Below, piece after piece: positions 5,216 through 59,826 of a stretch of 64,000 nt of DNA (the first letter of the stretch is position 1; each line of letters opens with the position of its first letter). Below the pieces are notes generated by a model. The model was given only the letters and a program-made list of their open reading frames with translations, was not told where the DNA came from and ran no database searches. Location: the NCBI GenBank assembly GCA_001029715.1, contig CP011212.1, positions 769,066 through 833,065 on the forward strand, written 5' to 3'. The DNA is from a candidate division TM6 bacterium GW2011_GWF2_28_16. Its GTDB lineage: Bacteria; Patescibacteriota; Microgenomatia; UBA1400; PJMF01. Both the position numbers and the translations under genes were made by a program.

Positions 5216-5217
5216 AT

Positions 5218-12141: not shown

Positions 12142-12143
12142 AA

Positions 12144-13461: not shown

Positions 13462-13524
13462 TGGGATTATTATACATGATAGATACTTGATATCCTTGTC
13501 TTAGCTTGCTACATTGTCTTTATA

Positions 13525-14397
13525 ATGTCACATAAACTCTCCCCCTACCAAAAATTACTCAAGGAAATTTTGGATGAAGGAGATCAAAGTAAAACCCAAC
13601 AAGAAGTCGATAGTATTAGCAAAATTGCACCTGCTTCACTCCATTTCAAACTCAGTGAAGGTTTTCCAATTATTACTGAGCGCAAAATCAGCGAAAAAAT
13701 GTGGAAAGGCGCAATTGGCGAAATCATTGGTTTCATCAACGGTGCACGCACTCAAACTGAATTAGAAAAATATGGTTGTAACTGGTGGAAATCTTGGGTG
13801 ACTGAGGCTAAATGCAAAAAACGTGGTCTCGAAACTGGTGATCTTGGTCCTGGTTCCTACGGCGCTGCTTTTCATGATTTTCCCACCGCTGACGGGGGTA
13901 CTTTTAACCAATTCAAAGAAATCATTGAACAAATTAAAGAATTACCTCACCTCAAAACTCACTTTATCACTCCCTGGATTCCTCAGTACACTATTCGCGG
14001 TAAAGGCAAAACTCAAAAAGTCGTCGTTTGCCCATGTCATGGCTGGATTCACATCCGCATTATCGATAACAAATTAACTTTACATATGTTCCAACGCTCC
14101 TGTGACGTCCCGATTGGTCTTCCGGCCAATCTTGCACAGTATGCAGCTCTGACCATGATGATCGCCCAAGTAACTGGTTATGAGGCTTACGAATATATTC
14201 ATAGTTTTTCTGATGCTCATATTTTTGTCGACCAGATTGATCATGTTAAAGAATTAATTAAGCGCGAAACTCGCCCTTTGCCAAAAATGATTCTCAAAAA
14301 CAAAAAAGACAATCTTTTTGATTACCGCGTCGACGATTTTGAATTAGTTGATTACGATCCAAACCCAGGAATGTGGGACATTCCAGTAGCAGTTTAA
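13525..14397 (+). CDS. thyA: thymidylate synthase (ThyA type)
   Basis: Catalytic Cys in 'VVCPCHGWIH' and the conserved 'FQRSCDVPIGLPANLAQYAALTMMIAQ' block. Confidence 0.85.
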   Translation: MSHKLSPYQKLLKEILDEGDQSKTQQEVDSISKIAPASLHFKLSEGFPIITERKISEKMWKGAIGEIIGFINGARTQTELEKYGCNWWKSWVTEAKCKKRGLETGDLGPGSYGAAFHDFPTADGGTFNQFKEIIEQIKELPHLKTHFITPWIPQYTIRGKGKTQKVVVCPCHGWIHIRIIDNKLTLHMFQRSCDVPIGLPANLAQYAALTMMIAQVTGYEAYEYIHSFSDAHIFVDQIDHVKELIKRETRPLPKMILKNKKDNLFDYRVDDFELVDYDPNPGMWDIPVAV

Positions 14398-14409
14398 GCG
14401 AAAGTTAAA

Positions 14410-14880
14410 ATGGCACAAAACAAAAATGATTTTATTAATGTTAATAATTCCAGAGAAAAAGATCAGGTTGAAGTAATGAAAAAAATTGCCAATGAGGCTC
14501 ATTGTCCTTTTTGCCTAGAAAATTTGCGACTTTATCACAAGAAACCCATCCTCAAAGAAGGCAAGTTTTGGGTTATTACTACCAATCAATGGCCTTATGA
14601 ACACACCAAACACCATTTTCTTTTGATTTATAAAGAGCACGCTACTAAATTAACTGATTTAGAAACTGAAGCTGGCAATGAACTTTTTAGCATGATTAAA
14701 GATCTAGAAAAAGAATATCATTTTGAAGGTGGTGGCTTAGCAATGCGCTTTGGAGACACTGACTTTTCTGCCGGCACCGTTAATCATTTGCACGTACAAC
14801 TAGTAGTTCCAGATGCAATGGCCAAAGATTTTGAACCCGTGAAAATTAAAATTGGCTTGCAGTGGGAAAAGAGAAAATAG
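14410..14880 (+). CDS. HIT-like (histidine triad) nucleotide hydrolase/transferase family protein
   Basis: 'CPFC' N-terminal motif and triad-like 'VNHLHVQLVVP'. Confidence 0.5.
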   Translation: MAQNKNDFINVNNSREKDQVEVMKKIANEAHCPFCLENLRLYHKKPILKEGKFWVITTNQWPYEHTKHHFLLIYKEHATKLTDLETEAGNELFSMIKDLEKEYHFEGGGLAMRFGDTDFSAGTVNHLHVQLVVPDAMAKDFEPVKIKIGLQWEKRK

Positions 14881-14881
14881 A

Positions 14882-15802
14882 TTATTTCTTCAGCATGTAG
14901 CAGTTCTCAACCATGCTAGCTTGATTTTCCAATTTTTCAATTTCAACAAATTCTTTTTCGGAAAATTTAACCAAAATTACTTCTATACCAAAGCTCTTAA
15001 AAATCTCTAAACCATCAAGTAAAGCATAGCCTTTGGCATAATAAACTTTTTTAATGCCAGCGACGGCAATCTGTTTGGCGCAAACTGGACAAGGAAAAGT
15101 AGTTACAAACATTTCTGCACCATCTAAAGCAATACCTTGCTTAGCGGCTAAAGCAATTAGGTCTGCTTCAGCATGAATTGAACTACTAAAATCAATTCCA
15201 ACCCCAGAAGTAAAAGAAATTCTTGGATCACTATTTTTATATTGTTCATCATTATTTGGTAAATGTTTGTTAGAACCTGCAAAAATTACTTGACCGTTCT
15301 TCATAATCAGACCACCAACATGACGCCACCAATCACTACTTTTACCAGCCTGCATGAAAGCCTTAATCATCATTTTTTGTTCAAAATCTGCTTTGCTAAT
15401 CACAATATCCTTAGGAGCATCATTTTGTTTAGACATGAGATTTCTATCCCAACGCAAAAAGATTGGTTCAAAAGTTTTGTTTGCTGCTTTGGCAAAAAAT
15501 TCTTGAGCTATAAATTGGCCAATGTCGTCGCTAGTAAACACAAAACTATTTGAGTAATCTAATTGCTCTAAATTTTTAATTTTGATTGATTTAACAATAT
15601 TAAATATGTGCCATGAATTGATAGCTTGTTCAGTTAAAGATAGATCTAAAACCCGAATATCTTTTTTTAAATATTCTAATTCTTCAAAGCTTAGGAGCTC
15701 TTCTCTATCCAAAAGCCAAAGCTCAGCGCCGCGATATTTTTCAAAAAATTCCTGATAGCCGCGATGTAAAACGGGCACATAAGCGATGAGAATTTGTTTC
15801 AT
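14882..15802 (-). CDS. dCMP deaminase-family zinc deaminase with an N-terminal ~150-aa extension of unknown function
   Basis: C-terminal 'HAEADLIA...TTFPCPVCAKQIAVAG' (H-A-E + PCxxC) zinc-binding signature. Confidence 0.7.
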   Translation of the reverse strand: MKQILIAYVPVLHRGYQEFFEKYRGAELWLLDREELLSFEELEYLKKDIRVLDLSLTEQAINSWHIFNIVKSIKIKNLEQLDYSNSFVFTSDDIGQFIAQEFFAKAANKTFEPIFLRWDRNLMSKQNDAPKDIVISKADFEQKMMIKAFMQAGKSSDWWRHVGGLIMKNGQVIFAGSNKHLPNNDEQYKNSDPRISFTSGVGIDFSSSIHAEADLIALAAKQGIALDGAEMFVTTFPCPVCAKQIAVAGIKKVYYAKGYALLDGLEIFKSFGIEVILVKFSEKEFVEIEKLENQASMVENCYMLKK

Positions 15803-35392: not shown

Positions 35393-35399
35393 ATACTTG

Positions 35400-35470
35400 C
35401 AGGGCGGGAAGGAATCGAACCTTCATCAAGGGTTTTGGAGACCCCGATTCTACCGTTGAAATACCGCCCT
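35400..35470 (-). tRNA. tRNA-Trp (anticodon CCA)
   Basis: Reverse complement 'AGGGCGG-TA-TTTCAACGGTAGAA-TC-GGGGT-CTCCAAA-ACCCT-TGAT-GAAGG-TTCGATT-CCTTC-CCGCCCT-G'. 7-bp acceptor stem, anticodon loop CU-CCA-AA, T-loop TTCGATT. Confidence 0.8.
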
Positions 35471-37394: not shown

Positions 37395-37469
37395 TGAGCC
37401 ACCTCTGGGACTCGAACCCAGGACCTACTGTTTACAAAACAGTTGCTCTACCAACTGAGCTAAGGGGGC
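37395..37469 (-). tRNA. tRNA-Thr (anticodon UGU)
   Basis: Reverse complement 'GCCCCCT-TA-GCTC-AGTTGGTA-GAGC-A-ACTGT-TTTGTAA-ACAGT-AGGTC-CTGGG-TTCGAGT-CCCAG-AGGTGGC-T'. One C/T mismatch in the acceptor stem. Confidence 0.8.
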
Positions 37470-37474
37470 GATAG

Positions 37475-37556
37475 TGCCAAGGGAAGGATTCGAACCTACG
37501 GAGGCTAGGCCAGCAGTTTTACAGACTGCCCTCGTTGACCACTTGAGTACCTTGGC
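37475..37556 (-). tRNA. tRNA-Tyr (anticodon GUA), type II with long variable arm
   Basis: Reverse complement 'GCCAAGG-TA-CTC-AAGTGGTCAAC-GAG-G-GCAGT-CTGTAAA-ACTGC-TGGCCTAGCCTCC-GTAGG-TTCGAAT-CCTTC-CCTTGGC-A'. Perfect acceptor stem. Confidence 0.8.
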
Positions 37557-37563
37557 GTCTCTA

Positions 37564-37638
37564 TGAGCCTTCGTCGGGGATCGAACCCGAGACCTCAGTC
37601 TTACCAAGACTGCGCTCTACCAACTGAGCTACAAAGGC
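37564..37638 (-). tRNA. tRNA-Thr (anticodon GGU)
   Basis: Reverse complement 'GCCTTTG-TA-GCTC-AGTTGGTA-GAGC-G-CAGTC-TTGGTAA-GACTG-AGGTC-TCGGG-TTCGATC-CCCGA-CGAAGGC-T'. One G-U pair in the acceptor stem. Confidence 0.8.
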
Positions 37639-46420: not shown

Positions 46421-46452
46421 AAAAATCCCGCTCTTGGCGGGGTTCTCATTTT
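46421..46452 (-). terminator. minus-strand rho-independent terminator ending the 5-gene operon (CCCGC/GCGGG stem followed by ATTTTTTGTG)
   Basis: 'aaaaaatgagaaccccgccaagagcgggattttttg' on the minus strand, 100 nt after the stop of gene 46555-48645. Confidence 0.55.
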
Positions 46453-46554: not shown

Positions 46555-48645
46555 TCAACCCGCTCCGCCACCACCACCTCCACCTCCACCGCCACCACCT
46601 CCAGAAAAACCTCCACTTGAACCACCTCCAGAAGCACCATAGCTGCTAGTGGCTGAGCTAGTCAGATTGGCAAAAGCACCGCCCAAAGAATTCAGCGAGT
46701 CAGTCAAAGAACCTAAGTTAATAGCACTTAAATTACCTACTGCGGAGCCATGTAAACTATCAAAGCTAGCAACTCCCCAATAGGTTCCCAAAACTCTTTG
46801 GTCAGCATCTGAGAAATGTACTGGCAATTGTGATAAAGCTTTCATCGACACTCCAAACAAAGTCCCATAAACCAAATATTTCTCCCACAAAATCACGCTA
46901 TCGATCGAATAGTCTTTAGTTTTTTTATAATCGAACATATGTTTTTTAAAAGCTTGCCACGCGCTAGCCTCTTCCCAACCTTTTTTAGTTCTTTTTTGGG
47001 CAAAATGTTGCAGCATAGAAAAAACCATTCCGATCGTAAAAAAGAGCAATAAATTAATTACAGCTAGAAATAAACCGATAGTAACTAAACTTGTGGTTTT
47101 TACTGATGGCTCTCCTTCTAACAAGTTACCAAGCATAAACAGGAGAATAAAGCTAAAAACAGGCACTAGAAAGACCCGTAGAGCCGAAAAACTTCTTGCG
47201 TAATCATAAGAATCTCTTTCAAAAAAACCTTGGCTAAGACCGCTATCTAAAGATGTTTTTTCCAAACCCTTAAAAAAGTTATAACTAGAAGAAGGATTAC
47301 TCTTAATATATTGGCTAATGTCGGTTAAAGCTAAGCGTCTTTTGGTTTTTTCAGTTGGTGTGGCGCTTAAAGCTCCTCGCTTTGTCCAGGTTTGTTCTTT
47401 TTCATCAAAAAATTGAAGATAACTTTTAGCAATTTTTTCAGTCAAAAACTCATAAACTTCCTGCTCCACTGCGGCTAATTCACTGGGTGAACGATTGGTT
47501 TTTTCCAAGAAATATTTGTACTCTTTGTGCAAAAAACCTTCTTTCTTATTGCTGCGAGTGATTTTGAAAAGTTTTTTAGCCACCAAAGACAAAACAGAAG
47601 CGGTAAAAACCTTTGGACTTAAACTTTTAGTCGCAGATAAAAGTTGTACCACCAAAGCTGGCTCCAAATCACTAGGTGGTTCCCAAACTCCACTTAAATT
47701 TTTTAATTTTTTATCTTTGCCCAAACGTAAAAACTTGGAAAACTCAACTACACTCAGGAAAACTCCAAGTAGAAAAAGCAATATCGTTGCTAAAAGATAG
47801 AGCAAACCCAAACGTTCGTTTTTCTTAACTTTAGCAATTGTTTCATCAATAAAAGATTGCTCCTCTTCTAAAATACTCGCTTCATTTGAAGAACCATTGA
47901 TTTCTCTCAAAAACATATTTGTTGGTAATAAAACTCTCCCTTCAAAAAACTTTCCAACTGGCAAGCGATCAGCCTGCAAAGAGACGAGATAAAGTCCAGT
48001 CTTTTCATCTGGCAAAGCAGAAATACTCACTTTCGCATTAAGTGGACCATGGCCAAAAGCCTTAACGCTATCAAGCTGGCTGGCCAAAATTTCTTTTGGC
48101 AAATAAATATCAACTTTGATGTTTTGGCTTGACACTTCCCAAGCATCACCAATAAATTGCCAATAAAGTTCAGCTATGTCTATGTGCTTAGTAATAGCAT
48201 TGCCAACTTTATAGCTCAAAACAAAATCTTTAACTTCGTAATTAGCCTGAAAGTGCCACTCTAAAAAATATTTGTCGCCCCGATCATCGATCAGAAAAGT
48301 ATTATCAGGATTGTTTCTGGGTTCTACTAAATTAGCTGAAGCCGTAGCCAAAGCTTTATAACAAAGCTCATTATTTTTTTCACAAAGCTTGAAATCGCTC
48401 AAAACATAAGGCACTTCTCTACCGTCGTTGCCTGGAACTTTGTTAATTTCTTGATAAACAAAACGATAATCACCTTGGAAATTAAATTGGCGCTCTTCCG
48501 TCACATCCATTGAGCCATCTTTATTGATGAAGGCTTGAATATTAACTGTGTCGATACTGTATTCTTTAGCAAAAGCACTACCAGAAAAAATGAAGGTAAG
48601 AATGAAAAATAGAAATAAAATTTTTTTATTCATAGCGTAAAGCAT
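46555..48645 (-). CDS. DUF2207-like membrane protein: signal peptide, large extracytoplasmic domain, transmembrane helices, C-terminal Gly-rich tail
   Basis: N-terminal 'KKILFLFFILTFIFSGSAFA', central hydrophobic helices, C-terminal 'GGGSSGGFSGGGGGGGGGGGGGAG'. Overlaps the upstream permease gene by 20 nt. Confidence 0.5.
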   Translation of the reverse strand: MLYAMNKKILFLFFILTFIFSGSAFAKEYSIDTVNIQAFINKDGSMDVTEERQFNFQGDYRFVYQEINKVPGNDGREVPYVLSDFKLCEKNNELCYKALATASANLVEPRNNPDNTFLIDDRGDKYFLEWHFQANYEVKDFVLSYKVGNAITKHIDIAELYWQFIGDAWEVSSQNIKVDIYLPKEILASQLDSVKAFGHGPLNAKVSISALPDEKTGLYLVSLQADRLPVGKFFEGRVLLPTNMFLREINGSSNEASILEEEQSFIDETIAKVKKNERLGLLYLLATILLFLLGVFLSVVEFSKFLRLGKDKKLKNLSGVWEPPSDLEPALVVQLLSATKSLSPKVFTASVLSLVAKKLFKITRSNKKEGFLHKEYKYFLEKTNRSPSELAAVEQEVYEFLTEKIAKSYLQFFDEKEQTWTKRGALSATPTEKTKRRLALTDISQYIKSNPSSSYNFFKGLEKTSLDSGLSQGFFERDSYDYARSFSALRVFLVPVFSFILLFMLGNLLEGEPSVKTTSLVTIGLFLAVINLLLFFTIGMVFSMLQHFAQKRTKKGWEEASAWQAFKKHMFDYKKTKDYSIDSVILWEKYLVYGTLFGVSMKALSQLPVHFSDADQRVLGTYWGVASFDSLHGSAVGNLSAINLGSLTDSLNSLGGAFANLTSSATSSYGASGGGSSGGFSGGGGGGGGGGGGGAG

Positions 48646-51193
48646 TTAAAGCTGAAATTTTTGTAGCTCTATAAGACGGATACATACCTGTAGCAACAGC
48701 GATAATGAAAGAAAGTGCCACTACACCCGCACCTAAATAAAATGGGATATAAACCAATTGAATGTAGCCGAGCCCTTTAGTTACAGAAATCATTGATAAA
48801 ATCAAACTAACCAATTGACCTGCCAAGGAACTAATTAAAAGTCCACACACCCCTCCAGACAAACCCATAACAATCGACTCTGCCAAAAATAAACGTTTCA
48901 CTTCATTTGATTTCATACCAATAGCCTTCATTAAGCCAACTTCTCTAGTTTTCTCCAAAAGTGAAACTGTTAGCGTATTAAACATTCCAAGCGCAGCAAC
49001 ACTTAAGGCCACCATGCCTAAAATTGAAAGCACAAACCTCACAGTATCAAACAAATCATTAATCTTACCCACTGTATCTACTACTGAGCTAGTTTGAAAA
49101 CCACTGGATTCAATACTTTGACGAATTTGATCAATTTTGTTTTGATCTTTAACTACAACTTTAATTTGAGAATAATTTTCTACTCCTAGACCCTTAATAT
49201 CATTAAATGGCATATAAAAAGCTGGCGTTTTTTCATCAGGAATAACAGCTACAATTGTAAAATCAGTTGGAGCAGATTCTGCCTGATAATCTGCCTTAGA
49301 AAAGAATTCTTGATCAAGCATAAAAGTAGTGTTAAAAACTTTCCCAACTGCATCAGCTTCATCAATTGCTAAAATTTTGAGCATAGCTCTATTAACTACG
49401 GCAACTTTTTGTGCCGACTCACGTAAAGGAATAACTTCTCTTTTTGTAATTGAAGCAGATGAAGAACCATCGCCCATACTATTCCAGTCCAAAGTACCAT
49501 CAGGCAATTGTTGCGCCATCAAAATAGTTCCATCTGCTAAAGCAATCTGACCACTATCGCTAGCCTCTTCTGAATCACTAGCTAAAGCACTTCCACTTGA
49601 TGAAGCACTGTTGGCAAGAGCACTCTCAATATTCTCTGCCAAAGATGCGCTAGCAGTTGATTCTCCTAAAACTTGACCGAACATTAGTGGTTCATCCATA
49701 TCTTCAATTAATACTCTATCTGCTCTTATATATGCTATTGCTTCTTTTTGTTTATTGTTGTCATCTAAATCTCTTAAATAAGTGTTATCACAAGTCTCTC
49801 CGCAATCAACTTTCTTCCAAAGTGGCAAACTCGCTCTCACCCAATAACCGACATTTTTGCCATTAACATTGCTGCCTACATTGCCCCAACCACTCTCGCT
49901 GTAATAAGATTCTCCATAAACTAATTCTCCAGAAATTAATAAATCATTTGTTTGAGAAGCATAAGTATTAAGAATCTGTTTGTCTTTAAAAACATCCGAG
50001 TAAAGTTCAATATATTTATTTTTGCCAATACTAAAGCTAATTGACTCGACTGTATCTCCCTCTATAAAACTTGGAAAAGCCGAAGCTAAAACTTTATATC
50101 GATCAATACTCATACTATCCTCAGTCATGTATCCTTGAATCAATTCTTGTCCATTTCCAGATTTAATAACTTGATACTTGCCGTCTACACAACCAAGCTC
50201 ATTTTCATCACAGATTCCACTCTTCCAGAGTGGCACAGTATCAACTATCCATGGACTGAAAACATTACTAAACAAATCGATGCCTTCGATTAAAGGTTCG
50301 CTGGTCTCATAAGACTCCCCCCAAACCTCACTTGCTTCAACATCTCCAACTCCTCTACTCGTGTAACCAAGAATTTTGGATTTTGTACTAGGCTCCGTAT
50401 AAACTGGCTTCCAAACCAATGGATAAATTGAGTAACGAGCTTGAGATAGCTCCTTTCCCAATTTTGCGCCACTCAAACGTTTAATAACTGCACCAGCAAC
50501 CTGACCAACAACATCGTCGTTTGATTCTATTTCTGCGGAGAGCTCCTTGTCTTCAAAAAGCGTCCCTTTAACTGGCTGAATAGCCGATTGTTGCAAAAAT
50601 TCTTTAGTTACTCCGTAAGCAACTACATCTGAAACAGAGTTGTTATAATTAACTTTAGAGACAATAGAAATCATTGGAATAACTAGCTCCACTCCTTCAA
50701 TATTTTTTAAATCATCCAAAGTTTTATCATTGATCGTTAAAGAAGCAGATTGACCGATGGTGACATTAATCTGTTTCATTTCATCTAATCTAGCTACTCT
50801 CGAAATAACTAGTTTTTGGACGCCATAGCCTAAAGATAATAAAAACACCACTGCTCCAAAGCCAATAGCCATGCCACCAATAGTAATAATAGTGCGGGTC
50901 TTCTTTAATTTTAAATGTCTGACAGCTAAATGTACTAAATCTAAAGAAGAAATTTCGCCCTCATCTTTGGAGTTAAGAGGTCCAATGATTTTTTTATAAA
51001 TAGTTTTAACTGGTTTTCTAAATGGGTTAGCAAGAATTCTAATAATTGGCCAATGACTAATAAATTTCAGAACATCAAAAAAAAGATAAATAATGACAAT
51101 TAAGAAAAAACGTAAGAAAAAGAACAACTCCTTAACAAAAGCAATGTAATTAAAACTCTTAAGCTTGGAAAGAAAGGATTTTAGTTTTGTCAT
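48626..51193 (-). CDS. MacB/FtsX-type ABC transporter permease with a very large (~600 aa) extracytoplasmic domain
   Basis: Transmembrane helix 1 'IITIGGMAIGFGAVVFLLSLGYGV', then a long soluble insert, then an FtsX 3-helix bundle at the C-terminus ('MKAIGMKSNEVKRLFLAESIVMGLSGGVCGLL'). Overlaps the ATPase gene by 4 nt. Confidence 0.7.
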   Translation of the reverse strand: MTKLKSFLSKLKSFNYIAFVKELFFFLRFFLIVIIYLFFDVLKFISHWPIIRILANPFRKPVKTIYKKIIGPLNSKDEGEISSLDLVHLAVRHLKLKKTRTIITIGGMAIGFGAVVFLLSLGYGVQKLVISRVARLDEMKQINVTIGQSASLTINDKTLDDLKNIEGVELVIPMISIVSKVNYNNSVSDVVAYGVTKEFLQQSAIQPVKGTLFEDKELSAEIESNDDVVGQVAGAVIKRLSGAKLGKELSQARYSIYPLVWKPVYTEPSTKSKILGYTSRGVGDVEASEVWGESYETSEPLIEGIDLFSNVFSPWIVDTVPLWKSGICDENELGCVDGKYQVIKSGNGQELIQGYMTEDSMSIDRYKVLASAFPSFIEGDTVESISFSIGKNKYIELYSDVFKDKQILNTYASQTNDLLISGELVYGESYYSESGWGNVGSNVNGKNVGYWVRASLPLWKKVDCGETCDNTYLRDLDDNNKQKEAIAYIRADRVLIEDMDEPLMFGQVLGESTASASLAENIESALANSASSSGSALASDSEEASDSGQIALADGTILMAQQLPDGTLDWNSMGDGSSSASITKREVIPLRESAQKVAVVNRAMLKILAIDEADAVGKVFNTTFMLDQEFFSKADYQAESAPTDFTIVAVIPDEKTPAFYMPFNDIKGLGVENYSQIKVVVKDQNKIDQIRQSIESSGFQTSSVVDTVGKINDLFDTVRFVLSILGMVALSVAALGMFNTLTVSLLEKTREVGLMKAIGMKSNEVKRLFLAESIVMGLSGGVCGLLISSLAGQLVSLILSMISVTKGLGYIQLVYIPFYLGAGVVALSFIIAVATGMYPSYRATKISALNALRYE

Positions 51194-51945
51194 GACTTTT
51201 CTGCCCTTCCTATATTACCTCTTTTAGAAACGCTGAGTTTTTTTAGACGCTCATCATTGGCTGAATACTCACCAACTACAACTCCATCGGCCATATTAAC
51301 AGATCTTGAAGCAAACTTAAGATATTCCAAATCGTGAGTAACCATAATGACTGTTTTTCCCTTATCATTAGATTGCTTAAATAAGGCCATAATGTCTTCA
51401 CTAGCTTTTGAATCCAAATTACCAGTTGGCTCGTCTGCCACGATCAAAGCTGGATCAGAAATCAAAGCTCTAGCTAAAGAAACACGTTGCTGCTGACCAG
51501 ATGAAAGTTCGGCAGGATTTTGGAGAGCACCTTGCTCCATGCCAACCATTTTTAAAACTTCCATCGCTCGTTTTTCTCTTTCTTCTTCTGGCAAACCACG
51601 CAGAGTTAAAGGGAAGTATACATTTTCAATAACGTTGAGCGATTTTACCCAGTTAGATTGCTGATAAATAATTCCAACCTGTTGCTTTCGCATTTGCGCA
51701 CGTCCATCTTCGTCAAAAGCATCGTAAATATTCTTGCCTAAGAAAATTACTTCTCCTTTGGTTGGAGGCTCCAAACCAAGCAAAATATTTAGCATAGTGC
51801 TCTTACCACAACCAGAGGGACCAAATAAAATCAAAAAATCACCCTTATTAACTGAAAAACCAGCTCCTTTAATAATCTGAGTTTCCTGAGTTCCCAGATT
51901 AAATGATTTATGAATTTCAGTTAGTTTAAGTATTTGTTCTGCCAT
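51190..51945 (-). CDS. ABC transporter ATP-binding protein (MacB/LolD-like)
   Basis: Walker A 'GPSGCGKST', signature 'LSSGQQQRVSLARAL', Walker B 'IVADEPTGNLD', H-loop 'VTHD'. Confidence 0.85.
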   Translation of the reverse strand: MAEQILKLTEIHKSFNLGTQETQIIKGAGFSVNKGDFLILFGPSGCGKSTMLNILLGLEPPTKGEVIFLGKNIYDAFDEDGRAQMRKQQVGIIYQQSNWVKSLNVIENVYFPLTLRGLPEEEREKRAMEVLKMVGMEQGALQNPAELSSGQQQRVSLARALISDPALIVADEPTGNLDSKASEDIMALFKQSNDKGKTVIMVTHDLEYLKFASRSVNMADGVVVGEYSANDERLKKLSVSKRGNIGRAEKS

Positions 51946-51952: not shown

Positions 51953-52342
51953 TTATTCTATTTTCGTTGGATCAAAATTAATTTTTTTAACTTCCGACCA
52001 CAAAAATGGACTGTCTTTATCAGTATGCAAAGATAGATAAAAGCCATCGGCTGGAATATCAGTTAGTAGAACTGCATGAATTGTTCCAGGAACACTGCTT
52101 GTTTGCTGTGCGACTTGTGAAAGGTTGGTTTCACTTTCTCCATACTTTGCAAAACCAATAGATTCTTTTTCTGAAGTCCAAAAAATAATAGCCTGATGAG
52201 GATCTACAAAAGTTACTTCAAAATGGTTCTCAATTTGGCGCTGTTGTTTATTAAAGATAAAAATTGACAATAAAAGCCCAGTTATAAAAGCCAAGCTTAG
52301 AACGATTAAAGCAATTTTTTGCTTTATATTTAATATTTTCAT
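51953..52342 (-). CDS. small membrane-anchored protein (N-terminal helix + ~100-aa extracytoplasmic domain) between the giant gene and the ABC genes
   Basis: 'IALIVLSLAFITGLLLSIFIF' helix; no motif. Spaced 2 nt from the giant gene and 7 nt from the ATPase gene. Confidence 0.4.
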   Translation of the reverse strand: MKILNIKQKIALIVLSLAFITGLLLSIFIFNKQQRQIENHFEVTFVDPHQAIIFWTSEKESIGFAKYGESETNLSQVAQQTSSVPGTIHAVLLTDIPADGFYLSLHTDKDSPFLWSEVKKINFDPTKIE

Positions 52343-52344: not shown

Positions 52345-55300
52345 TTACTTAGTTCCTAAAAATCCAAATATCAAAGACATATTGGAAACCACCAAATCTA
52401 AGGCATTGTCCGTAGCTTTTGGAGTAATTACTACTTTATCAACTGACTCTCCCACATTACTATACTGATCTTTTGATAAGGCTCGCAAGTGATAAACCTT
52501 CGATGGAGTTAATCCAGAAATAACAACTATATGGTGACTTGTTAAGGAAGCATCTTCTTGAGTTTTTTGTGAATAAGTTGAACCACTACCCTCTCCAAAC
52601 TCAATTTGGGCAGATGCTGGTTCATCCGTGTTAAACGAAACTAATAATTGAGCGGTTGATTCTTCTCCTACTCCAAGAATTTCTCCTTCCACTCTGAGAT
52701 CACTAATTTGAGGAGGCCTACTATCTGCCGAGGTTGCAATCTGTTGGAACTCACCAACAGCTTCATTACCAACGGCATCTTTACCTTTGATTAAAATTCC
52801 ATAAGTTGTCTGTGAATCAAGATCATAAATAATCATTTGATGTTTACCAGACTTAAGAGCAAGATTGACTTCGTCTTTGGCTGCCCCCGGAGCGGTAACT
52901 GGATAATAGGTTACAATTGAAGAAATACTGGTGTTTGATTCCCAAGTAACTAATAGAGTCGATCTAGCAGTCCCTTTAACTTGACTCACTTTAATATTTT
53001 TGATTTTTGGTCTTGGTAAAGTTTCGAATGAATGAATTTCACCCTCATATTCTTCACCCTCTGAGTCAAAAGAGTTAATTTTGTAATAATATTTAGTGCC
53101 ATCTTTCAAGTCTGAAAGTTGCACAGTGTGCGTACCCTCTCCAGAGCCAGTCACTACATTTTCGATTCCGCCAAAAGCAGATGATTCACCAAAATAAACT
53201 CTAACGCTAGCAGCATTTTTTGATATAAATTGAATTAAAGCACTGTCCAAACCCATACTTTTTACCTGAGGTTCTTCTGTTGTTGGAGCTGGCTCTGTAA
53301 CAAAAGTTGCTTCAGCAGACTCACCAGTGTTTCCATCTTCATCCGTCCATTTAGCAATATAATAGTAAGTAGTTCCCGGAGAAAGGTTGAGTAAGTTTAA
53401 TGCATGATTAGTTGCTTGAATGGAATTTGAAACTTCTTCATCAAAATAATCACCAGGACTCGTTCCATAAGATATCCTCGAATCAGCTGTTCTTGCTGTG
53501 GACCAAGCAACAGAAGCTTTTTTAGTGGTCACATTTGAAACCACTGGCTCAGATACTAGACCAGCTGGTTCAATAAATTTTCCATCTGGAAATAATTCAA
53601 CCACTTCAGAAAATGCACCACAATTATTAGTGCTATCACAAACTTTGACTTTGTAATAATACTCTTGCTGAATCAAACCAGTATCAACGTAAGAAATACC
53701 ACCACTAGTAGCTATTTGAGCAAATGTTTCACCATCTATTGATCGATAAATAGCATAATGATCAGAAATACCACCCTCCGACGGAGCTTCCCAAGACAAA
53801 GCAATCTTCCAAGAGCTAGTGGCTTTAACAGAAACATCAGCAATATCCATATTAAGTGGAATTCCTGGAGCAGTGGTGTCTGCTGTAAAGATAACCGACG
53901 CATAATTTGAGTAATTTATGTTTCCCGCTTCGTCTTTAGTCACAATATAAAGAACATTTTCACCTGGTAAAGTTGCATAAGCCCCAGCAACTAAATTTCT
54001 TACACTAGTTCCAGTGGTACTATGGGCTGTTGGCAATGCATTAATACTGTAATAATAAGACAAATTAGAAACTGAGCCATAATAAGTTCCTGTTGCTGGA
54101 GGATCCCAACTAAAAGCAAAGGAATTTTCCGTATTAGATGATGGCGTGACTACTAAATTAGTTGGAGGTGCTGGAGCATTGCCGCTATCTACATAATAAT
54201 ATGGTGTAGATGCGTAATCACTATAGTTACCAGCCTCATCTTTACTACGAACATAAAAAGTATTCGCTCCCACTTTATGTGAAGGTATACCAGTGACAGA
54301 AGTGCTAGTGATACATTGATCTTCTGCATAAGTTCCTGAAGTGGCAGCAGTTTTATAACAATATCCAGTAATCTGTGCTCCACTGCTGGTGGACTCACTC
54401 CAAGAAAAATCAAAACTATCCGTAGCTGAATAGCCAGATGGATCAGCCGATAAATCAGCTGGAGCGGCTGGGGGTCGCGAATCATATTTATAAATGAAAG
54501 GTGCCCAAGCTTCTGCTGAAACATTTCCAGCATTATCAATCGTCTTAACTCTCAAATAATAAGTCTCTCCATCGGTCAAATTGCTAGCAGAATAGTTGCT
54601 ATCAACTTGAAGCGAACCGTCTTCTTCTGGATTTGCTGATGAATTTGTTCCAAAGTAAACATAATATCCAGCTACCCCTGAACCAGTACTTGTATCAGAA
54701 GCTCCATCTGTAGATTCTGCATCTGGCCAATCAAAATATGGATTACTATGCCCATACCAATTTGAGGAAACTATTGCCGTTCCAGGATCACTATTGCTAT
54801 AAGTAGCTAAACCAGAAGTTTGTGGATTTGTTGGCGCAGAAGTGTCTTTGTAATAATTAACCGTATAATCATTAATAACGCCAGAATAGACGCCATCTGA
54901 TGATGAAAGTTCAAATTTTATTTCAAGGTAACGAGCTGCTGGAGACTTAATTTCATAAATATAGCTTGAACCATTCTTCTTCTCAGAGGCTACTGCAGTC
55001 CAAGACGACCAAGTACTATTGTCAGCAGAACTGCGTGTTTTAATGCTAAGAGAAGCGTTATTTGCTAAAACATAATCAACTTGTAAATTTATCCATTTGT
55101 AGACTGAATCTAAATCGTGAGAAACAGAAGTATAAGTTCCCTCTTCTTCAAAAGAAGAAGTAGCTGTCTCCATAATGTATGTATAAATTCCATTGTCATA
55201 ACCACCAGTGCCGGTACCAGATAGCATAAAAACTTTGTCCACTCCATTACTTTCACCAGATCCACCAACATAAATTTTAGAGGGTGCATTGCCTAATTGA

Positions 55301-58300
55301 GTCCAATTGTTATCTACCACTGAATATTTATAAAAATCATTATCATTTTCACCTCTAGCAGCATAGATATTTCCATCTCCACCGTAAGTCGCGAAGCCAT
55401 CATTGTAAACATCTATATTCAGGTCGCTAACAGCTGGATCACTCCAAGTATTGCTTGCAATGTCATAGCGATAAAAAGGATTATTGGCTACGTTTTGGCC
55501 CCTTAAGGTATAAATATAGTTATTACCATCAAAAACCAGCTCAGCTCCATAACCCAAACCAGCAGGCGAAGCAGTCATAGTAGACCATTTGCTACCAGCA
55601 CTACCCTGCGTATCAAATCTATAGAAAGTAGTATTTGCTCCACCCCTATTTAAATAAATATAACGAGATCCGTCATAAGCCATAGAGCTACCATAATCTG
55701 TAACAGCAAGAGTTGGATCATCAACTTCTTCAGACCAAGTATTCGAAGCAATGTTATAAACATAAAATCTTTGTAAATAATAGCCACCAGTTAGATAAAT
55801 TTTATTTTGCGTACTATCATAAACTAATGAAGATCCAGAATAAGTCCCAGTAGGAGTTGAAGCCAGTTTTTGCATTGACCCAGTGCTCGAATCATAACGC
55901 ACAAAATCATCTGAATAGTTTCCTTTGGTTAGATAAAAATAATTACCATCACCCTTAACAAGATCTTCTCCATAGCCAGGATATACATAGTCCGTACCTT
56001 GATATGTTGTCCCGAACAAACCTACATTAGGGATTAGCCAGCTATCCTTTGAAACACTATATTTATAAAAATTAGTTCTATTGCCACCAATAATGGCATA
56101 TAAACTGTCACCAACATTTTTAAGATTGGCTCCATAATAAAAGGTGTATGGGGCTGAAGAAACCTCCTCCCAAGTTTGATCTGAAGTTTTAAACTTATAC
56201 ATCTTGTCAGAATAATAACCAGGAACAAAATAAACTGCCTCCGCGCTTGGAACGTATTCTATTGACGATCCTAAATAAGATAATTGAGGTAAATCTGGCA
56301 GAACCGCCCAAGAATTTGAGTTCATATTATAAACAGCAAACCCATCGCGAATATTACCTTGAGTAGCATAAACAAAACCATTTTCTCTATCTATTGCTAG
56401 GTCAGCTCCAATATAAGCACTATTATTAACAGCATTGGTAGTAGCACCAAAATCTAAGTTTGATAAAGATTCCCAACTATCCCCAACAGCGTCATATCTC
56501 CAAAAAGCATCATCATTATTTCCACGCATTACATAAACGTGTCCAGAACCGTCATATTCCATGGAAGCACCATAATAAACTGCTAAAGGGGCGTCACTTG
56601 CATCTTCATCACTCCAAATATTGTTTTCTATGTCATAACGATAAAATGAAGAAGTATTATTACCACGCAAACCATAAAGATAACCGTCTGGTCCTTCCAC
56701 TACTCCACCGCCAATATAAATATTTCCTGGAGCATTAGCTAAAGTCGACCAAGTATCACTAGCTAGATCGTAACCATAAAAAGTTGCTACATTTGCACCT
56801 CTAAAAGCAAAAAGCTTGTTTAATGATGCAACGTAGGCTGTATTTTTTGCTCCATATTGCATAGTTGCTGGAACATTACTTAATGGCTCTTGTAACCAAA
56901 AACCTCCCTCTCTGCTAGCTAATTTTAGTTGATTATTGCCTGTGTTAATTTCATCAGCAGTACCAACAAAATCAGTTATTGTTAAACTTTGCGGTGGCGA
57001 AATACCTGCATAAACATAAGTGAATATTGTGCTTGCATCACTAATATTCCCATAGCTATCTTTTGTTTTAATTCTTAAATAATAAGAACCAGTACTTAAG
57101 CTTTCAGTTACAGTGTAATTACTATTTGTCTGAAAAAATCCTACTGATTCTGGATCAGCTACTTCATTACTACCAAAATAAACATAATATCCAGCAACCT
57201 CAGATTGCGCATCGGTTGCTCCACTCCATGAGAAGTAGGGGCGAATATAATTATATGTTTCTCCACTAGTCAGTGCTATACCAGCAACCTGCTGAGAGAG
57301 ACCACTAATGGCATCTGGATTGCTTGGTGCCAAAGTATCACCTGCATAAGAAATACTAATCTCACTTAACGTCGGGCTACTAGCAGAGCCGCTTGAAGCC
57401 ACCAGTGTTGCTTTAACCTGAATAAATCTTTGAGCTGGAGAAGAAATCACTCCGCTCGCCACAACAACCCAATCACTCCAAGATAAAGCGTCACTACTAG
57501 TTCTAGTTTCATAAATAATACTGCTATCGTCTGGAGTTGATGAGGTAGCAGAAAAAGCAGTAAAACTAGAAACGTAAGCTAGATCTTTAATTTCAGAGGT
57601 CCATGATCCAGTGGCATAATACTTATTTGCTGCAGGAGTATAAGTGAGAATATTTTGGCGACCATTTCCATAAGAAATATAAAAAGAATTATTGCTATCA
57701 TATTCAATAGAAGCACCTGCATAAACTCCATTATCCTGAGCATAATAACCAGGAATACTCTGCAATTTCCTCCAATTATCTAAAGAAATATTGTACTCAT
57801 AAATGTCTTTTTTGTACCAACCTGCCAAAGCAACAATTTTTCCATCATGGTAAGCAAGATCGGTGCCGTAAAATGGAGCAAATGGAGGCTTAGCAACTTC
57901 TGTCCATACATTGTCATTAATTGTATATTTAAAAAATCTGCTAATACCAACTCCAGGAATATAGAATATATCAGTACCATCAGAGATAAGACGAGAACCA
58001 TACGAAGACTCTGCATCCACAGGTAAATCAGCCACTGAGACATCATCCCAAGAGTTTCCAGAAATACTGTATCTCCAAAAAGAATTAGTGGTAGCTCCAC
58101 GCGTTGCATAGATATAATCTCCAGAACCAGGATAGGATAGAGCTCCTCCAAAACGCACTGTAGTTGGCGGAGCAGTCATCGTAGTCCAACTGTCTCCTGA
58201 AGGACTGTATCTATAAAAACTATTAGTGTTCCCGCCTCTAAAAAAATAAAGATCAGAACCAGCTACTACTCCTTTGACATCATCTGTCATTGTTCCTGGA

Positions 58301-59463
58301 GTAGCGGTTAAGGTGGTCCAAACATTGGCGGAAGGATCATATTTATAAAATGTAGAGTTTGCACCACGCAATACATACATGTCATCATCGTAATAAACGA
58401 TATCACTACCTGTGGATAGAGTGCCTGGAGCATCATCAACGCCAATAAACGAATTTGTTGCTGGATCGTATTTCCAAAAATTGTATGTTCCATTTCCTTG
58501 AAAAACATAAACATAACCATCATTGCTGTTATAGATAGAACCAGCATAACGGGAAACTGCTGGGAGATTGGCTAAAGTTGACCAAGTATTTGAAACAATG
58601 TCATAAGCATAAAAAGAATTTGTTCCACTCTGTCTGGTAACATAAATTTTGCTGCCATCGGTGGAAATTTCAACGTCTTCATTAATTGTGACCGGTAAAA
58701 CAGCCATTGTTGCCCAAATGTTAGCGGTTAGGTCATATCTATAAAATGTGTTTGTATTACTTCCACGAGGCGTGTACAAATAATTCCCCACTCTAACCAA
58801 ATCTGATCCAGAAGAAGTTGTAGCTGGAGTACCAGCCATAGGACTCCAAGAATTATTGCCAACGTCGTATTTATAAAAATCTTGTGTACCACCCGAACGG
58901 AGAGCATAGATACTCGTGCCATCATTTTCCAAACTGGCTCCAGAGTAAATCAGATCTGGCAAATCGCTCAACATTTCCCAAGAATCATTAGCCACCGAAT
59001 AACGAGCAAAAGCAGTTTGATAGCCACCAAACATGGCATAAACATAACCATCCATATATTCCAACTCTGATCCGTAGTAAGTTCCTCTCGGCAAATTAGC
59101 CAAAGTAGTCCATTTATCATTTTCAGGAGAATATTTCCAAAATAGAACATCTCCAGTTCCTCTTGAAACATAAATATCTTCACCATCAAAGGCTAAAGCC
59201 GTACCTGCGCTTAAAGTAAGATCTGGAGCTCTCCAACTTTTTGCTCCAAAAGTTCCAGCTGCACTTATTGAAACATCTCCTTCTTTGATAGAAAAATCTA
59301 AATTTAGATTTGTCCCAGCATCCCAATCAGAACTAGTAGTAAAAAATGTTTCTGAGGCCCTAACTGGAAATTCATAAAAAAGTAAATTTAAGGCAAAAAA
59401 AGACATCACAACAAAAGCAATTCTCAACACAAAAAACTCGCGATTGTTGAATCCCGAAACCAT
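52345..59463 (-). CDS. giant (2372 aa) membrane-anchored or secreted surface protein: Kelch-type beta-propeller repeats interleaved with and followed by fibronectin type III-like domains
   Basis: N-terminal hydrophobic segment 'FFVLRIAFVVMSFFALNLLF'. More than 25 repeats of ~47 aa matching the Kelch blade pattern (IYV..G.....FY.YD...N.W..L...P). FN3-like modules such as 'APSNPDAISGL...YYVYFGSNE...YYLRIKTKDSYGNIS' and 'APTNPQTSGL...YYLRVKTIDNAGNVS', then at least 5 tandem FN3-like modules at the C-terminus. No LPxTG-type sorting signal. Confidence 0.7.
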   Translation of the reverse strand: MVSGFNNREFFVLRIAFVVMSFFALNLLFYEFPVRASETFFTTSSDWDAGTNLNLDFSIKEGDVSISAAGTFGAKSWRAPDLTLSAGTALAFDGEDIYVSRGTGDVLFWKYSPENDKWTTLANLPRGTYYGSELEYMDGYVYAMFGGYQTAFARYSVANDSWEMLSDLPDLIYSGASLENDGTSIYALRSGGTQDFYKYDVGNNSWSPMAGTPATTSSGSDLVRVGNYLYTPRGSNTNTFYRYDLTANIWATMAVLPVTINEDVEISTDGSKIYVTRQSGTNSFYAYDIVSNTWSTLANLPAVSRYAGSIYNSNDGYVYVFQGNGTYNFWKYDPATNSFIGVDDAPGTLSTGSDIVYYDDDMYVLRGANSTFYKYDPSANVWTTLTATPGTMTDDVKGVVAGSDLYFFRGGNTNSFYRYSPSGDSWTTMTAPPTTVRFGGALSYPGSGDYIYATRGATTNSFWRYSISGNSWDDVSVADLPVDAESSYGSRLISDGTDIFYIPGVGISRFFKYTINDNVWTEVAKPPFAPFYGTDLAYHDGKIVALAGWYKKDIYEYNISLDNWRKLQSIPGYYAQDNGVYAGASIEYDSNNSFYISYGNGRQNILTYTPAANKYYATGSWTSEIKDLAYVSSFTAFSATSSTPDDSSIIYETRTSSDALSWSDWVVVASGVISSPAQRFIQVKATLVASSGSASSPTLSEISISYAGDTLAPSNPDAISGLSQQVAGIALTSGETYNYIRPYFSWSGATDAQSEVAGYYVYFGSNEVADPESVGFFQTNSNYTVTESLSTGSYYLRIKTKDSYGNISDASTIFTYVYAGISPPQSLTITDFVGTADEINTGNNQLKLASREGGFWLQEPLSNVPATMQYGAKNTAYVASLNKLFAFRGANVATFYGYDLASDTWSTLANAPGNIYIGGGVVEGPDGYLYGLRGNNTSSFYRYDIENNIWSDEDASDAPLAVYYGASMEYDGSGHVYVMRGNNDDAFWRYDAVGDSWESLSNLDFGATTNAVNNSAYIGADLAIDRENGFVYATQGNIRDGFAVYNMNSNSWAVLPDLPQLSYLGSSIEYVPSAEAVYFVPGYYSDKMYKFKTSDQTWEEVSSAPYTFYYGANLKNVGDSLYAIIGGNRTNFYKYSVSKDSWLIPNVGLFGTTYQGTDYVYPGYGEDLVKGDGNYFYLTKGNYSDDFVRYDSSTGSMQKLASTPTGTYSGSSLVYDSTQNKIYLTGGYYLQRFYVYNIASNTWSEEVDDPTLAVTDYGSSMAYDGSRYIYLNRGGANTTFYRFDTQGSAGSKWSTMTASPAGLGYGAELVFDGNNYIYTLRGQNVANNPFYRYDIASNTWSDPAVSDLNIDVYNDGFATYGGDGNIYAARGENDNDFYKYSVVDNNWTQLGNAPSKIYVGGSGESNGVDKVFMLSGTGTGGYDNGIYTYIMETATSSFEEEGTYTSVSHDLDSVYKWINLQVDYVLANNASLSIKTRSSADNSTWSSWTAVASEKKNGSSYIYEIKSPAARYLEIKFELSSSDGVYSGVINDYTVNYYKDTSAPTNPQTSGLATYSNSDPGTAIVSSNWYGHSNPYFDWPDAESTDGASDTSTGSGVAGYYVYFGTNSSANPEEDGSLQVDSNYSASNLTDGETYYLRVKTIDNAGNVSAEAWAPFIYKYDSRPPAAPADLSADPSGYSATDSFDFSWSESTSSGAQITGYCYKTAATSGTYAEDQCITSTSVTGIPSHKVGANTFYVRSKDEAGNYSDYASTPYYYVDSGNAPAPPTNLVVTPSSNTENSFAFSWDPPATGTYYGSVSNLSYYYSINALPTAHSTTGTSVRNLVAGAYATLPGENVLYIVTKDEAGNINYSNYASVIFTADTTAPGIPLNMDIADVSVKATSSWKIALSWEAPSEGGISDHYAIYRSIDGETFAQIATSGGISYVDTGLIQQEYYYKVKVCDSTNNCGAFSEVVELFPDGKFIEPAGLVSEPVVSNVTTKKASVAWSTARTADSRISYGTSPGDYFDEEVSNSIQATNHALNLLNLSPGTTYYYIAKWTDEDGNTGESAEATFVTEPAPTTEEPQVKSMGLDSALIQFISKNAASVRVYFGESSAFGGIENVVTGSGEGTHTVQLSDLKDGTKYYYKINSFDSEGEEYEGEIHSFETLPRPKIKNIKVSQVKGTARSTLLVTWESNTSISSIVTYYPVTAPGAAKDEVNLALKSGKHQMIIYDLDSQTTYGILIKGKDAVGNEAVGEFQQIATSADSRPPQISDLRVEGEILGVGEESTAQLLVSFNTDEPASAQIEFGEGSGSTYSQKTQEDASLTSHHIVVISGLTPSKVYHLRALSKDQYSNVGESVDKVVITPKATDNALDLVVSNMSLIFGFLGTK

Positions 59464-59826
59464 ATAATATTAATACTATATAATGTGAAAAAAGAAGTCG
59501 AGCCTATATTCTTTATAAAAAGGATCAAAATAGATCTAAATAGATAATTTTTGGAAAAATTGCTCAGTAAAAAAACAGCTATTTCTAAGCTTCTTCCAAA
59601 CTTCATCATTTATCACAAAAAATCGTCTTTTTAAGGGCCTTTTAAGCACTCTTTTCAAATTTGAAAAAAGATGTATAATTCACTTCTGTTCCAAAGACAG
59701 TGTGGCTCGAAAGAGTTAAAAATCGCACCGAGGAAAATAAATTTCTTTATTTTATCTCCCCTGCTTTTTCTCACATCTTTGGCACAAAATTGAAAATAGA
59801 AAATTAGTAATTTTTGAAAGACTTTT

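Follow-up and report, generated by a model that had tools for sequence, protein, structure and literature searches.

What does a giant Kelch-repeat protein of an ultra-small bacterium have to do with the MacB-type ATP-binding cassette (ABC) transporter whose genes follow its own? The question is raised by a 64,000-nucleotide (nt) stretch of contig CP011212.1 (GenBank assembly GCA_001029715.1, positions 769,066–833,065), hereafter the window, from a genome deposited as candidate division TM6 bacterium GW2011_GWF2_28_16 and placed by GTDB in the Patescibacteriota. An earlier reading of the sequence (the original prediction) had described a protein of 2372 residues at positions 52345–59463, built from Kelch-like blades and fibronectin type III (FN3)-like modules, as a candidate adhesin or S-layer-like component coupled to a MacB-type exporter. 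The open reading frame (ORF) is confirmed on the minus strand. It is a real protein-coding gene of an uncultivated, ultra-small member of the Patescibacteria, or candidate phyla radiation (CPR), with more than 110 full-length orthologues of 2330–2420 residues. Sequence comparison places the giant protein as the Kelch-headed branch of a Patescibacteria-wide superfamily characterized by an FN3 stalk and a C-terminal tail, and the stalk and tail, rather than the Kelch head, are the part that travels with the ABC genes. This near-obligate linkage suggests an ATP-coupled cell-surface device and not an ordinary adhesin. That stalk and tail are what accompanies the ABC genes, the conserved C-terminal helix and an internal duplication of the head are additions to what had been noted before. 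The Patescibacteria represent a large share of bacterial diversity, and the finding bears on their envelope and their contact with hosts.

A stalk and tail accompanied by ABC genes

The superfamily was delineated by a search with residues 1430–2372 of the giant protein as the query, which returned 1281 cluster representatives (50% identity) at E ≤ 1e-30; the counts of heads, lengths and tails given here rest on 150 listed representatives of these 1281. All 150 match at E ≤ 1e-158 and comprise 679–4418 residues, with the match mostly reaching their C-terminus and a common core corresponding approximately to residues 1630/1730–2370 of the giant protein. Eight or more Kelch blades are present in 30 of them and none in 112. 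The other heads include Laminin_G_3/ConA-like and FGE-sulfatase-like domains as well as regions devoid of any Pfam match. A profile of the tail outscored every one of 3000 internal control segments in 125 of the 150, and most of the remainder carry divergent forms of the same helix. The variety of heads on a constant stalk and tail therefore identifies the stalk plus tail as the invariant unit, to which the Kelch head is an interchangeable addition. The approximately 1300 clusters originate, where named, from Microgenomates-type, Dojkabacteria, WWE3 and Saccharibacteria genomes and carry no annotation beyond 'hypothetical' or 'FN3 domain-containing'. A search from a distant Kelch-free member recovered proteins of about 1000–1100 residues labelled Saccharibacteria/Saccharimonadales. 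Stalk, tail and adjacent ABC genes together provide a handle for annotation and offer specific genes for the study of CPR surface biology. Tandem paralogous stalk genes occur in loci L050 (1071–9877), L056 (1335–9889) and L058 (3–9838), with copies of about 1430–1470 residues each in L050 and L056; each copy in these loci ends in the conserved tail and contains no Kelch blades.

Downstream of the giant gene, and on its strand, the window carries genes for a 129-residue protein, the ABC ATPase, the permease and a DUF2207 protein. A gap of 2 nt separates the giant gene from that of the 129-residue protein, and 7 nt separate the latter from the ATPase gene; the ATPase and permease genes overlap by 4 nt and the permease and DUF2207 genes by 20 nt. 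Gene order was compared across 86 related loci, in which the ATPase was scored where at least 900 nt of downstream sequence was available (74 loci) and the permease where at least 3.2 kb was available (56 loci). Of the 74 loci, 69 have the ATPase gene immediately downstream on the same strand; of the 56, 53 have the permease gene within 2 kb downstream of the stalk gene. The ABC genes are thus adjacent in the same order in 93–95% of loci, over a range of 35–93% identity that includes Saccharibacteria-labelled metagenome-assembled genomes (MAGs), and the stop and start codons of stalk and ABC genes frequently overlap. The genetic coupling to a MacB-type system that had been noticed in the window accordingly extends from Microgenomates-type to Saccharibacteria-labelled genomes. 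No conserved neighbour other than the ABC pair was observed in the loci inspected. Loci without the standard order contain tandem stalk genes or short flanks, apart from the convergent L067 (10306–12485), where the ATPase and permease genes also follow the stalk gene but are encoded on the other strand.

Could such synteny reflect co-regulation alone? The ABC pair would then be a generic MacB-, BceAB- or YtrEF-like efflux system for stress or antimicrobial peptides, and the giant protein an independent Sec-secreted adhesin held by some other anchor. MacB-type systems are indeed numerous in Patescibacteria; Southlakia epibionticum has at least three, and the three inspected have no FN3 stalk gene beside them. 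The permease's extracytoplasmic domain is also poorly conserved in size. What makes this explanation very unlikely is that same-order adjacency, often with overlapping codons, persists across Patescibacteria classes where no other neighbour is conserved, and that no alternative anchor was found in the giant protein. S. epibionticum itself appears to lack the stalk–ABC module. SEML1_0890, its essential 'glycan-binding fibronectin III' gene (PMC10633639), encodes only 195 residues and was rejected as a superfamily member, and PF16656 is missing from the Pfam table of the proteome (PMC10633639). Since SEML1_0890 is not a member and the module is apparently missing, the genetic data from this species are not transferable to the present system.

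The ATPase has FtsE, DarD, LolD and MacB as its best NCBIfam matches, all of them under the equivalog cutoffs (FtsE, 199 bits versus 265). The permease matches MacB_PCD (70 bits) and FtsX (57 bits) in Pfam, and among solved structures it is closest to Bacillus subtilis YtrF (9o9x, E = 2.7e-28 across the C-terminal FtsX domain), with MacB and LolC/E/F ranking next. The layout of four transmembrane (TM) segments, the FtsX and MacB_PCD domains and the adjacent ABC_tran ATPase are those of a type VII (MacB/FtsX-type) ABC system. The pair is not FtsEX proper, given that the FtsX models score 26–32 bits versus cutoffs of 225–255 and FtsE is likewise below its cutoff. A tripartite pump of the MacAB–TolC type was rejected, as genes for the membrane-fusion protein (HlyD/MacA) and the outer-membrane duct are in none of the inspected loci. 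Type VII ABC transporters pass ATP-driven movements to extracytoplasmic domains: MacB and LolCDE expel substrates from the outer face of the membrane, and FtsEX regulates the bound partners EnvC, PcsB, CwlO and RipC. MacB/FtsX-type systems are not known to move polypeptides or other substrates through the membrane. Because the giant protein has its own Sec signal, and because of this type VII mode of action, the ABC pair is unlikely to export it, and the term 'exporter' in the original prediction is misleading.

Comparison with characterized systems delineates the pair further. Like FtsEX with EnvC, PcsB, CwlO or RipC, it combines a separate FtsE-like ATPase with a four-TM FtsX-domain permease whose extracytoplasmic domain is inserted between TM1 and TM2, and its candidate partner is exported by Sec and not by the ABC transporter; in the known systems, such partners are bound and regulated. 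Unlike FtsEX, the permease is nearer to YtrF, MacB and LolC than to FtsX, the partner is a 254-kDa Kelch/FN3 protein without a coiled coil or hydrolase domain, the docking proposed below would involve a C-terminal helix instead of an N-terminal coiled coil, and synteny joins the partner's gene to the ABC pair. YtrEF, part of B. subtilis YtrBCDEF, is similarly a MacB-type system of a monoderm without a known transported substrate and has been implicated in cell-wall thickness. However, no giant surface protein is associated with YtrEF, and the permease described here has an extracytoplasmic domain of about 600 residues that lacks a solved relative. The architecture of MacB_PCD plus FtsX domain is shared with MacAB–TolC and LolCDE, and some related loci have a MacB-like fusion of ATPase and permease; in contrast to LolCDE, the giant partner bears no lipoprotein signal. 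These apparent fusions, in L040, L044, L048, L068, L069 and L072, form single ORFs of 725–962 residues downstream of the stalk gene, called from stop to stop, so that a missed stop or frameshift is possible.

Across the loci, the permease ranges from 407 to 962 residues. Tails ending in '..IIGRASDSVLTIIFNSLQKVFGL-end' occur with permeases of about 407–434 residues, those of the form 'ALDLV..NLS..FGFL' with permeases of 550–960 residues, and the small TM–FN3 gene is found only alongside permeases of 835–873 residues. The association between tail class and permease size may simply reflect lineage. In the permease of the window, residues 24–42 constitute an extra hydrophobic segment before TM1, with a Lys-rich stretch ahead of it, and this segment is conserved in the permeases of about 850 residues of close relatives. 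A membrane-spanning orientation would put the basic N-terminus on the outer side, contrary to the positive-inside rule, and the segment may be re-entrant or amphipathic instead. Kelch repeats, FN3 domains and MacB/FtsX-type ABC systems are each well known. In the literature searched, we found no description of a Kelch/FN3 stalk–tail module tied to a type VII ABC pair, and their combination as a phylum-wide module appears to be new.

Export and the duplicated Kelch head

The N-terminal hydrophobic anchor or signal noted earlier is a cleavable Sec signal peptide. Among the orthologues with a complete N-terminus, all 111 satisfy the −3/−1 rule for signal peptidase I (SPase I) at one shared position of the alignment, and 100 have Ala at −1. 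Hydropathy analysis revealed no further TM segment in the giant protein beyond the N-terminal hydrophobic core. Its only four cysteines form two close pairs (1702/1717 and 1942/1948), which are located in FN3 domains and conserved in the family. On the basis of the conserved SPase I site, the Cys pairs and the lack of other TM segments, the protein is predicted to be exported by Sec and its signal peptide removed, and we conclude from these sequence features that its bulk is extracytoplasmic; the topology check thus speaks against a cytoplasmic placement. The mature protein comprises approximately 2336 residues (253.8 kDa, pI 4.3).

The C-terminus ends in GTK after an amphipathic helix and carries neither a hydrophobic segment nor a basic tail. 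As the original prediction had stated, there is no sortase motif: LPXTG is absent, with 'NPQTS' inside the chain at residue 1546 as the sole loose match. Sortase anchoring was rejected, since the LPXTG–hydrophobic–basic C-terminus is missing. Type I secretion, as used by RTX adhesins of the LapA/SiiE type, was also rejected, given the Sec signal, the lack of RTX matches and an ABC pair of the FtsX type. The Pfam scan of the giant protein returned no match to SLH or another known S-layer anchor, and none to LysM. The Sec signal, the distal binding head, the stalk of Ig/FN3-like repeats and the C-terminal anchoring determinant are reminiscent of MSCRAMM/LPXTG adhesins. Beyond the missing sorting signal (LPXTG, hydrophobic segment and basic tail), the giant family differs from these in being constant in repeat number and length, highly conserved, and linked to ABC genes rather than to a sortase.

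The Kelch-like propeller repeats described earlier are detected far above chance. Pfam Kelch_6 reaches 123 bits (E = 2e-36, cutoff 25), Kelch_1, Kelch_3, Kelch_4 and Kelch_2 score 86, 83, 58 and 39 bits, all above their cutoffs, and two whole-propeller models likewise exceed theirs. A blade profile built from the ORF's own repeats counts 24 blades with a period of 43–47 residues and the pattern 'hYh.RG.....FY.YD...N.W..L...P', where the original prediction had more than 25; they occupy residues 85–614 and 870–1429 instead of about 80–1000 and 1100–1500. The estimate of about four propellers stands, with the 24 blades arranged in two blocks of 12. The final blade of each block is degenerate, and all four propellers are read as probably six-bladed from the 12 + 12 count. 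The FN3-like signature module recognized before, 'AP(S/T)NP..YYVYFG..YYLR(I/V)KT..D..GN(I/V)S', occurs exactly twice, once behind each blade block. Residues 57–823 and 855–1665 form a colinear alignment (29% identity, E = 3e-77), and the N-terminal two thirds of the protein therefore represent an internal duplication. Judged from this alignment, the duplicated unit runs through 12 blades, then a beta-sandwich, then an FN3-like module (Table 1). Neither beta-sandwich has a credible Pfam match even at a relaxed E ≤ 5. The conserved strands ahead of the first blade may pack against the beta-sandwich.

An AlphaFold2 (AF2) model of the Kelch region (predicted local distance difference test, pLDDT, 91) exhibits four strands per repeat, and Foldseek aligns it to NS1-BP with a TM-score of 0.79. 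The tandem motif scores and the four-stranded blades of the predicted structure assign the region to the Kelch-repeat family. Periplasmic glycan sensors of the BT4663 type, the top Foldseek match (E = 7e-18), likewise have tandem propellers followed by an Ig-like domain, and in the ROS1/Sevenless ectodomains, matched by both AF2 models, propellers alternate with FN3 domains. BT4663 (7-bladed) and ROS1 (YWTD-type) nevertheless belong to other propeller families, the giant protein has no kinase or signalling domain, and an identity of only 10–12% makes these likenesses analogies and not family membership.

The propellers might also be catalytic, as NanM-like mutarotases, galactose-oxidase-like radical copper oxidases or lactonases, in which case the protein would serve as an array of surface enzymes for host or environmental glycans. 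This is consistent with the label 'N-acetylneuraminic acid mutarotase' given by JGI to several orthologues, with weak PF24996 NANM matches on record and with the FGE-sulfatase-like head of one relative. However, the best fold matches of the propellers are non-catalytic Kelch domains, and the invariant blade residues are the structural G/Y/W/R positions of the Kelch repeat. No cofactor motif was identified, with the active-site residues not specifically examined. Taken together, a catalytic role is highly improbable.

The orthologues share 48–93% identity with the giant protein, and their named sources are the Patescibacteria group, Woesebacteria, Dojkabacteria, WWE3, Pacebacteria and the 'Parcubacteria group'. 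They are annotated as 'hypothetical', 'large repetitive protein', 'FN3 domain-containing' or, by transfer from COG, 'N-acetylneuraminic acid mutarotase'. An alignment of 112 orthologues is nearly free of gaps, and conservation is uniform along the mature protein, rising slightly in the C-terminal FN3 domains. It contains no hypervariable region, and length and repeat number are constant throughout. An adhesin in the usual variable sense, as first suggested for this gene, is a poor fit to a family of such constant length and gap-free alignment. NCBI lists the full-length orthologue P0116 (locus L004, 48% identity) under 'Weeksellaceae bacterium'; the genes around it are small-genome housekeeping genes and the ABC pair, which suggests a mis-binned or mislabelled Patescibacteria contig.

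Constant length and uniform, near gap-free conservation would also suit an S-layer-like or sheath scaffold, as would the large size, the pI of 4.3 and a composition rich in Ser, Thr, Gly, Ala and Tyr. The giant protein would then be a lattice or coat component, and the transporter would export or flip a lipid-linked glycan or small ligand for its heads. S-layers have been reported on groundwater CPR cells. This arrangement is distinctly unlikely in view of the missing SLH and other known S-layer anchors, and because interchangeable heads and the tandem paralogues of some genomes suit binding modules better than a lattice. A tight operon with a transporter also contrasts with the very high, independent expression of S-layer proteins, although this point is weak, as a strong promoter signal was not found either.

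The stalk, the tail and their possible docking

Behind the second FN3-like module, seven tandem FN3 domains form the stalk, in agreement with the 'at least five' counted previously. In Pfam, the fn3 model reaches 60 bits (cutoff 25) and the FN3-type domain Pur_ac_phosph_N 35.9 bits (cutoff 30). The AF2 model of residues 1430–2372 has a pLDDT of 87 and a predicted template-modelling score (pTM) of 0.39, as expected for beads on a string, and presents in order a beta-sandwich, the FN3-like module, seven all-beta FN3 domains of about 90 residues and a terminal helix. Foldseek matches this model to the FN3 arrays of titin, MyBP-C, mastigoneme, cytokine-receptor and ROS1/Sevenless proteins and to the bacterial grappling-hook protein GhpA. 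The profile score, the all-beta domains of about 90 residues and these FN3/Ig arrays concur in the FN3 assignment.

The last ~25 residues conform to the consensus 'ITPKAT(D/E)N-ALDLVxxNLSxxFGFL' and are among the best-conserved in the giant protein: A2354 and F2366 are conserved in 100% of orthologues, F2368 in 99% and L2357 in 95%. The amphipathic tail ranks in the 94th percentile of the protein's 18-mers by helical moment and is too polar for a TM helix, with a mean Kyte–Doolittle hydropathy of 1.52 and Asp, Asn and Ser within. An amphipathic, moderately hydrophobic segment that stands at the extreme C-terminus throughout the superfamily could be handled as LolCDE handles lipoproteins, which it pulls out of the outer leaflet. 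LolC/E/F are among the solved relatives of the permease, and the stalk–ABC synteny is compatible with such a role. The transporter would extract the tail from the outer leaflet once and hand the giant protein to the wall or S-layer, as an assembly factor and not as a lasting anchor or actuator. We consider this unlikely. The giant protein has no lipobox or lipid anchor, a LolA-like acceptor is encoded in none of the inspected operons, and no SLH, LysM or LPXTG wall-binding modules were found that could retain the released protein. A single extraction of the tail would, moreover, leave the high conservation of the seven-FN3 stalk unexplained.

The reading that we favour, with a little less than an even chance of being correct, is that the stalk of the giant protein, which bears a lectin-like head, docks on a type VII ABC transporter, and that this transporter actuates or releases the protein rather than exporting it. 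The constancy of stalk and tail, the tight gene spacing and the ABC synteny are counted in its favour, as are the head–stalk–tail architecture, the conserved SPase I site and Cys pairs, the exchange of heads, the constant length of the family, the association of tail class with permease size, and a MacB/FtsX/YtrF-type permease that has a large extracytoplasmic domain and no membrane-fusion protein gene in its operon. After Sec export and cleavage of the signal peptide, the protein would be held on the cell by its C-terminus. Docking on the extracytoplasmic domain or the TM cleft of the permease dimer would involve the tail helix and probably also the FN3 domains nearest the membrane, and in this lineage the small membrane-anchored FN3 protein of 129 residues would probably assist. 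The stalk would project the propeller heads through the wall over an estimated few tens of nm (nine FN3-size domains of ~3.5–4 nm each), where the lectin-like propellers may bind a conserved glycan on the host cell or on the cell's own envelope. ATP hydrolysis in the cytoplasm would be relayed by mechanotransmission, as in FtsEX–PcsB/EnvC or LolCDE, and would load or release the docked stalk protein or alter its conformation.

Several observations weigh against this docked arrangement. The permease's extracytoplasmic domain varies from about 200 to about 600 residues, which is unexpected for the partner of so conserved a stalk, and 5 of the 74 loci have no adjacent same-strand ATPase. The tail helix is predicted at residues 2354–2371 with low confidence (pLDDT ~50), and the grounds for a physical contact between tail or stalk and permease are indirect. 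Ligand binding by the propellers is suggested by fold resemblance, and Kelch folds also bind proteins or catalyse reactions. Nor has a function been established for YtrF, the permease's nearest solved relative. If the link between stalk and ABC transporter is physical, it would introduce a C-terminal anchoring signal of a new kind and a class of partner new to mechanotransmission ABC transporters. A bolder version, which we hold to be doubtful, is that the seven-FN3 stalk and the 'h-x-h-h-h-x-x-h-x-x-x-F-G-h' helix form an unrecognized docking or sorting signal that plugs exchangeable lectin-type heads into a MacB-type motor, as a phylum-wide ATP-powered surface organelle. Such an organelle would hold and actuate, or load and fire, host-contact proteins and would be central to the episymbiotic lifestyle.

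Gene boundaries, accessory genes and other features

The features of the giant gene and its operon are listed in Table 1.

Table 1. Positions, in window coordinates, of the giant gene, its encoded domains and the downstream genes.
Feature	Position	Strand	Description
Giant ORF	52345..59463	−	Uninterrupted, 2372 residues, ATG start
Sec signal peptide	59356..59463	−	Residues 1–36; hydrophobic core 10–28; predicted SPase I site VRA|SE
N-terminal beta strands	59212..59355	−	Residues 37–84, before blade 1; conserved 'T..DW..G...N......EG'; AF2 strands at model residues 2–37, pLDDT 87–91
Kelch block 1	57622..59211	−	12 blades, residues 85–614, read as two six-bladed propellers
Beta-sandwich module 1	57340..57621	−	Approximately residues 615–708; AF2 strands
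FN3-like module 1	56974..57339	−	Approximately residues 709–830; 'APSNP..YYVYFG..YYLRIKTKDSYGNIS'; weak Big_13 match
Kelch block 2	55177..56856	−	12 blades, residues 870–1429, paralogous to block 1
Beta-sandwich module 2	54835..55176	−	Residues 1430–1543; AF2 strands at 1441–1538
FN3-like module 2	54481..54834	−	Residues 1544–1661; 'APTNP..YYVYFG..YYLRVKTIDNAGNVS'; Ig_Rha78A_N 34.7 bits
FN3 stalk	52426..54459	−	Seven tandem FN3: residues 1669–1757, 1768–1861, 1870–1957, 1969–2055, 2066–2147, 2154–2243, 2253–2346
C-terminal tail	52348..52425	−	Residues 2347–2372; 'TPKATDN-ALDLVVSNMSLIFGFLGTK'; predicted amphipathic helix, superfamily hallmark
129-residue protein	51953..52342	−	N-terminal signal-anchor TM and one FN3-like (PAP-N type) domain
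ABC ATPase	51190..51945	−	251 residues, FtsE/LolD/MacB-NBD type; Pfam ABC_tran E = 8e-32
MacB/FtsX-type permease	48626..51193	−	855 residues; TM1 101–119, ~600-residue extracytoplasmic domain, TM2–4 at 720–834
DUF2207 membrane protein	46555..48645	−	696 residues; overlap with permease gene at 48626–48645
Terminator-like GC hairpin and T-run	46427..46441	−	Consensus scan only; such sites no commoner than in shuffled sequence

The start codon of the giant gene is slightly uncertain between the ATG at 59463 and a GTG 11 codons downstream (codon 12). A 93%-identical orthologue begins at the GTG position, and either start yields a valid signal peptide. The intergenic region of 363 nt (59464–59826) separates the giant gene from the divergently transcribed rplJ and rplL. 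Within it, no clear Shine–Dalgarno sequence precedes the ATG, nor does one precede the GTG, and an AT-rich −10-like element directly abuts the ATG. Rfam did not detect the L10-leader in this interval at the gathering threshold, and consensus scans of the region for promoters and terminators gave site counts not above those of shuffled sequence. The hairpin at 46427–46441 likely marks the end of a five-gene transcription unit, as judged from its sequence.

Two downstream genes were rejected as parts of the system. The gene for the 129-residue TM–FN3 protein is present in 9 of 74 loci, all of them close relatives with permeases of 835–873 residues, and is a lineage-specific accessory rather than a core component. 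Pur_ac_phosph_N is the top, sub-threshold Pfam match in three orthologues of this protein, and BLASTP relates it to the FN3 domain at residues 1975–2043 of the giant protein (E = 0.043). The DUF2207 gene is found downstream in 2 of 56 loci. Its overlap with the permease gene is shared with a 75%-identical locus (L001) and almost no other, and the gene is therefore regarded as a recent lineage-specific addition to the operon.

Other genes were recorded around the module in single loci. In a Saccharibacteria-labelled MAG (GCA_037127775.1; L084/L085, approximately 2980–5855 and 14011–15150), the FN3-stalk/ABC module is directly preceded by parts of a diversity-generating retroelement. These are bAvd, a reverse transcriptase (RVT_1) and, as candidate targets, several C-type-lectin-like Lcl_C genes; further Lcl_C genes lie downstream. 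In L086, a second FN3/Pur_ac_phosph_N protein of 1408 residues and two Lcl_C genes precede the stalk gene (1–5964), and a chemotaxis cluster with a methyl-accepting chemotaxis protein, CheW, a response regulator, CheB and CheA follows the ABC pair (11344–15129). Upstream of the giant gene in the WWE3-labelled L003 (1435–7896) are genes for Amidase_2, a GT2 glycosyltransferase, a sortase and a polysaccharide deacetylase with CBM_4_9. Elsewhere in the window, a 'tRNA-Asn' of 93 nt (anticodon ATT) called by ARAGORN at 2884–2976 on the minus strand lies within an ORF (1699–4071), has no support from Rfam and is probably a false positive. The four other tRNAs of the window, Trp at 35399–35470 and Thr-Tyr-Thr at 37396–37638, were confirmed.

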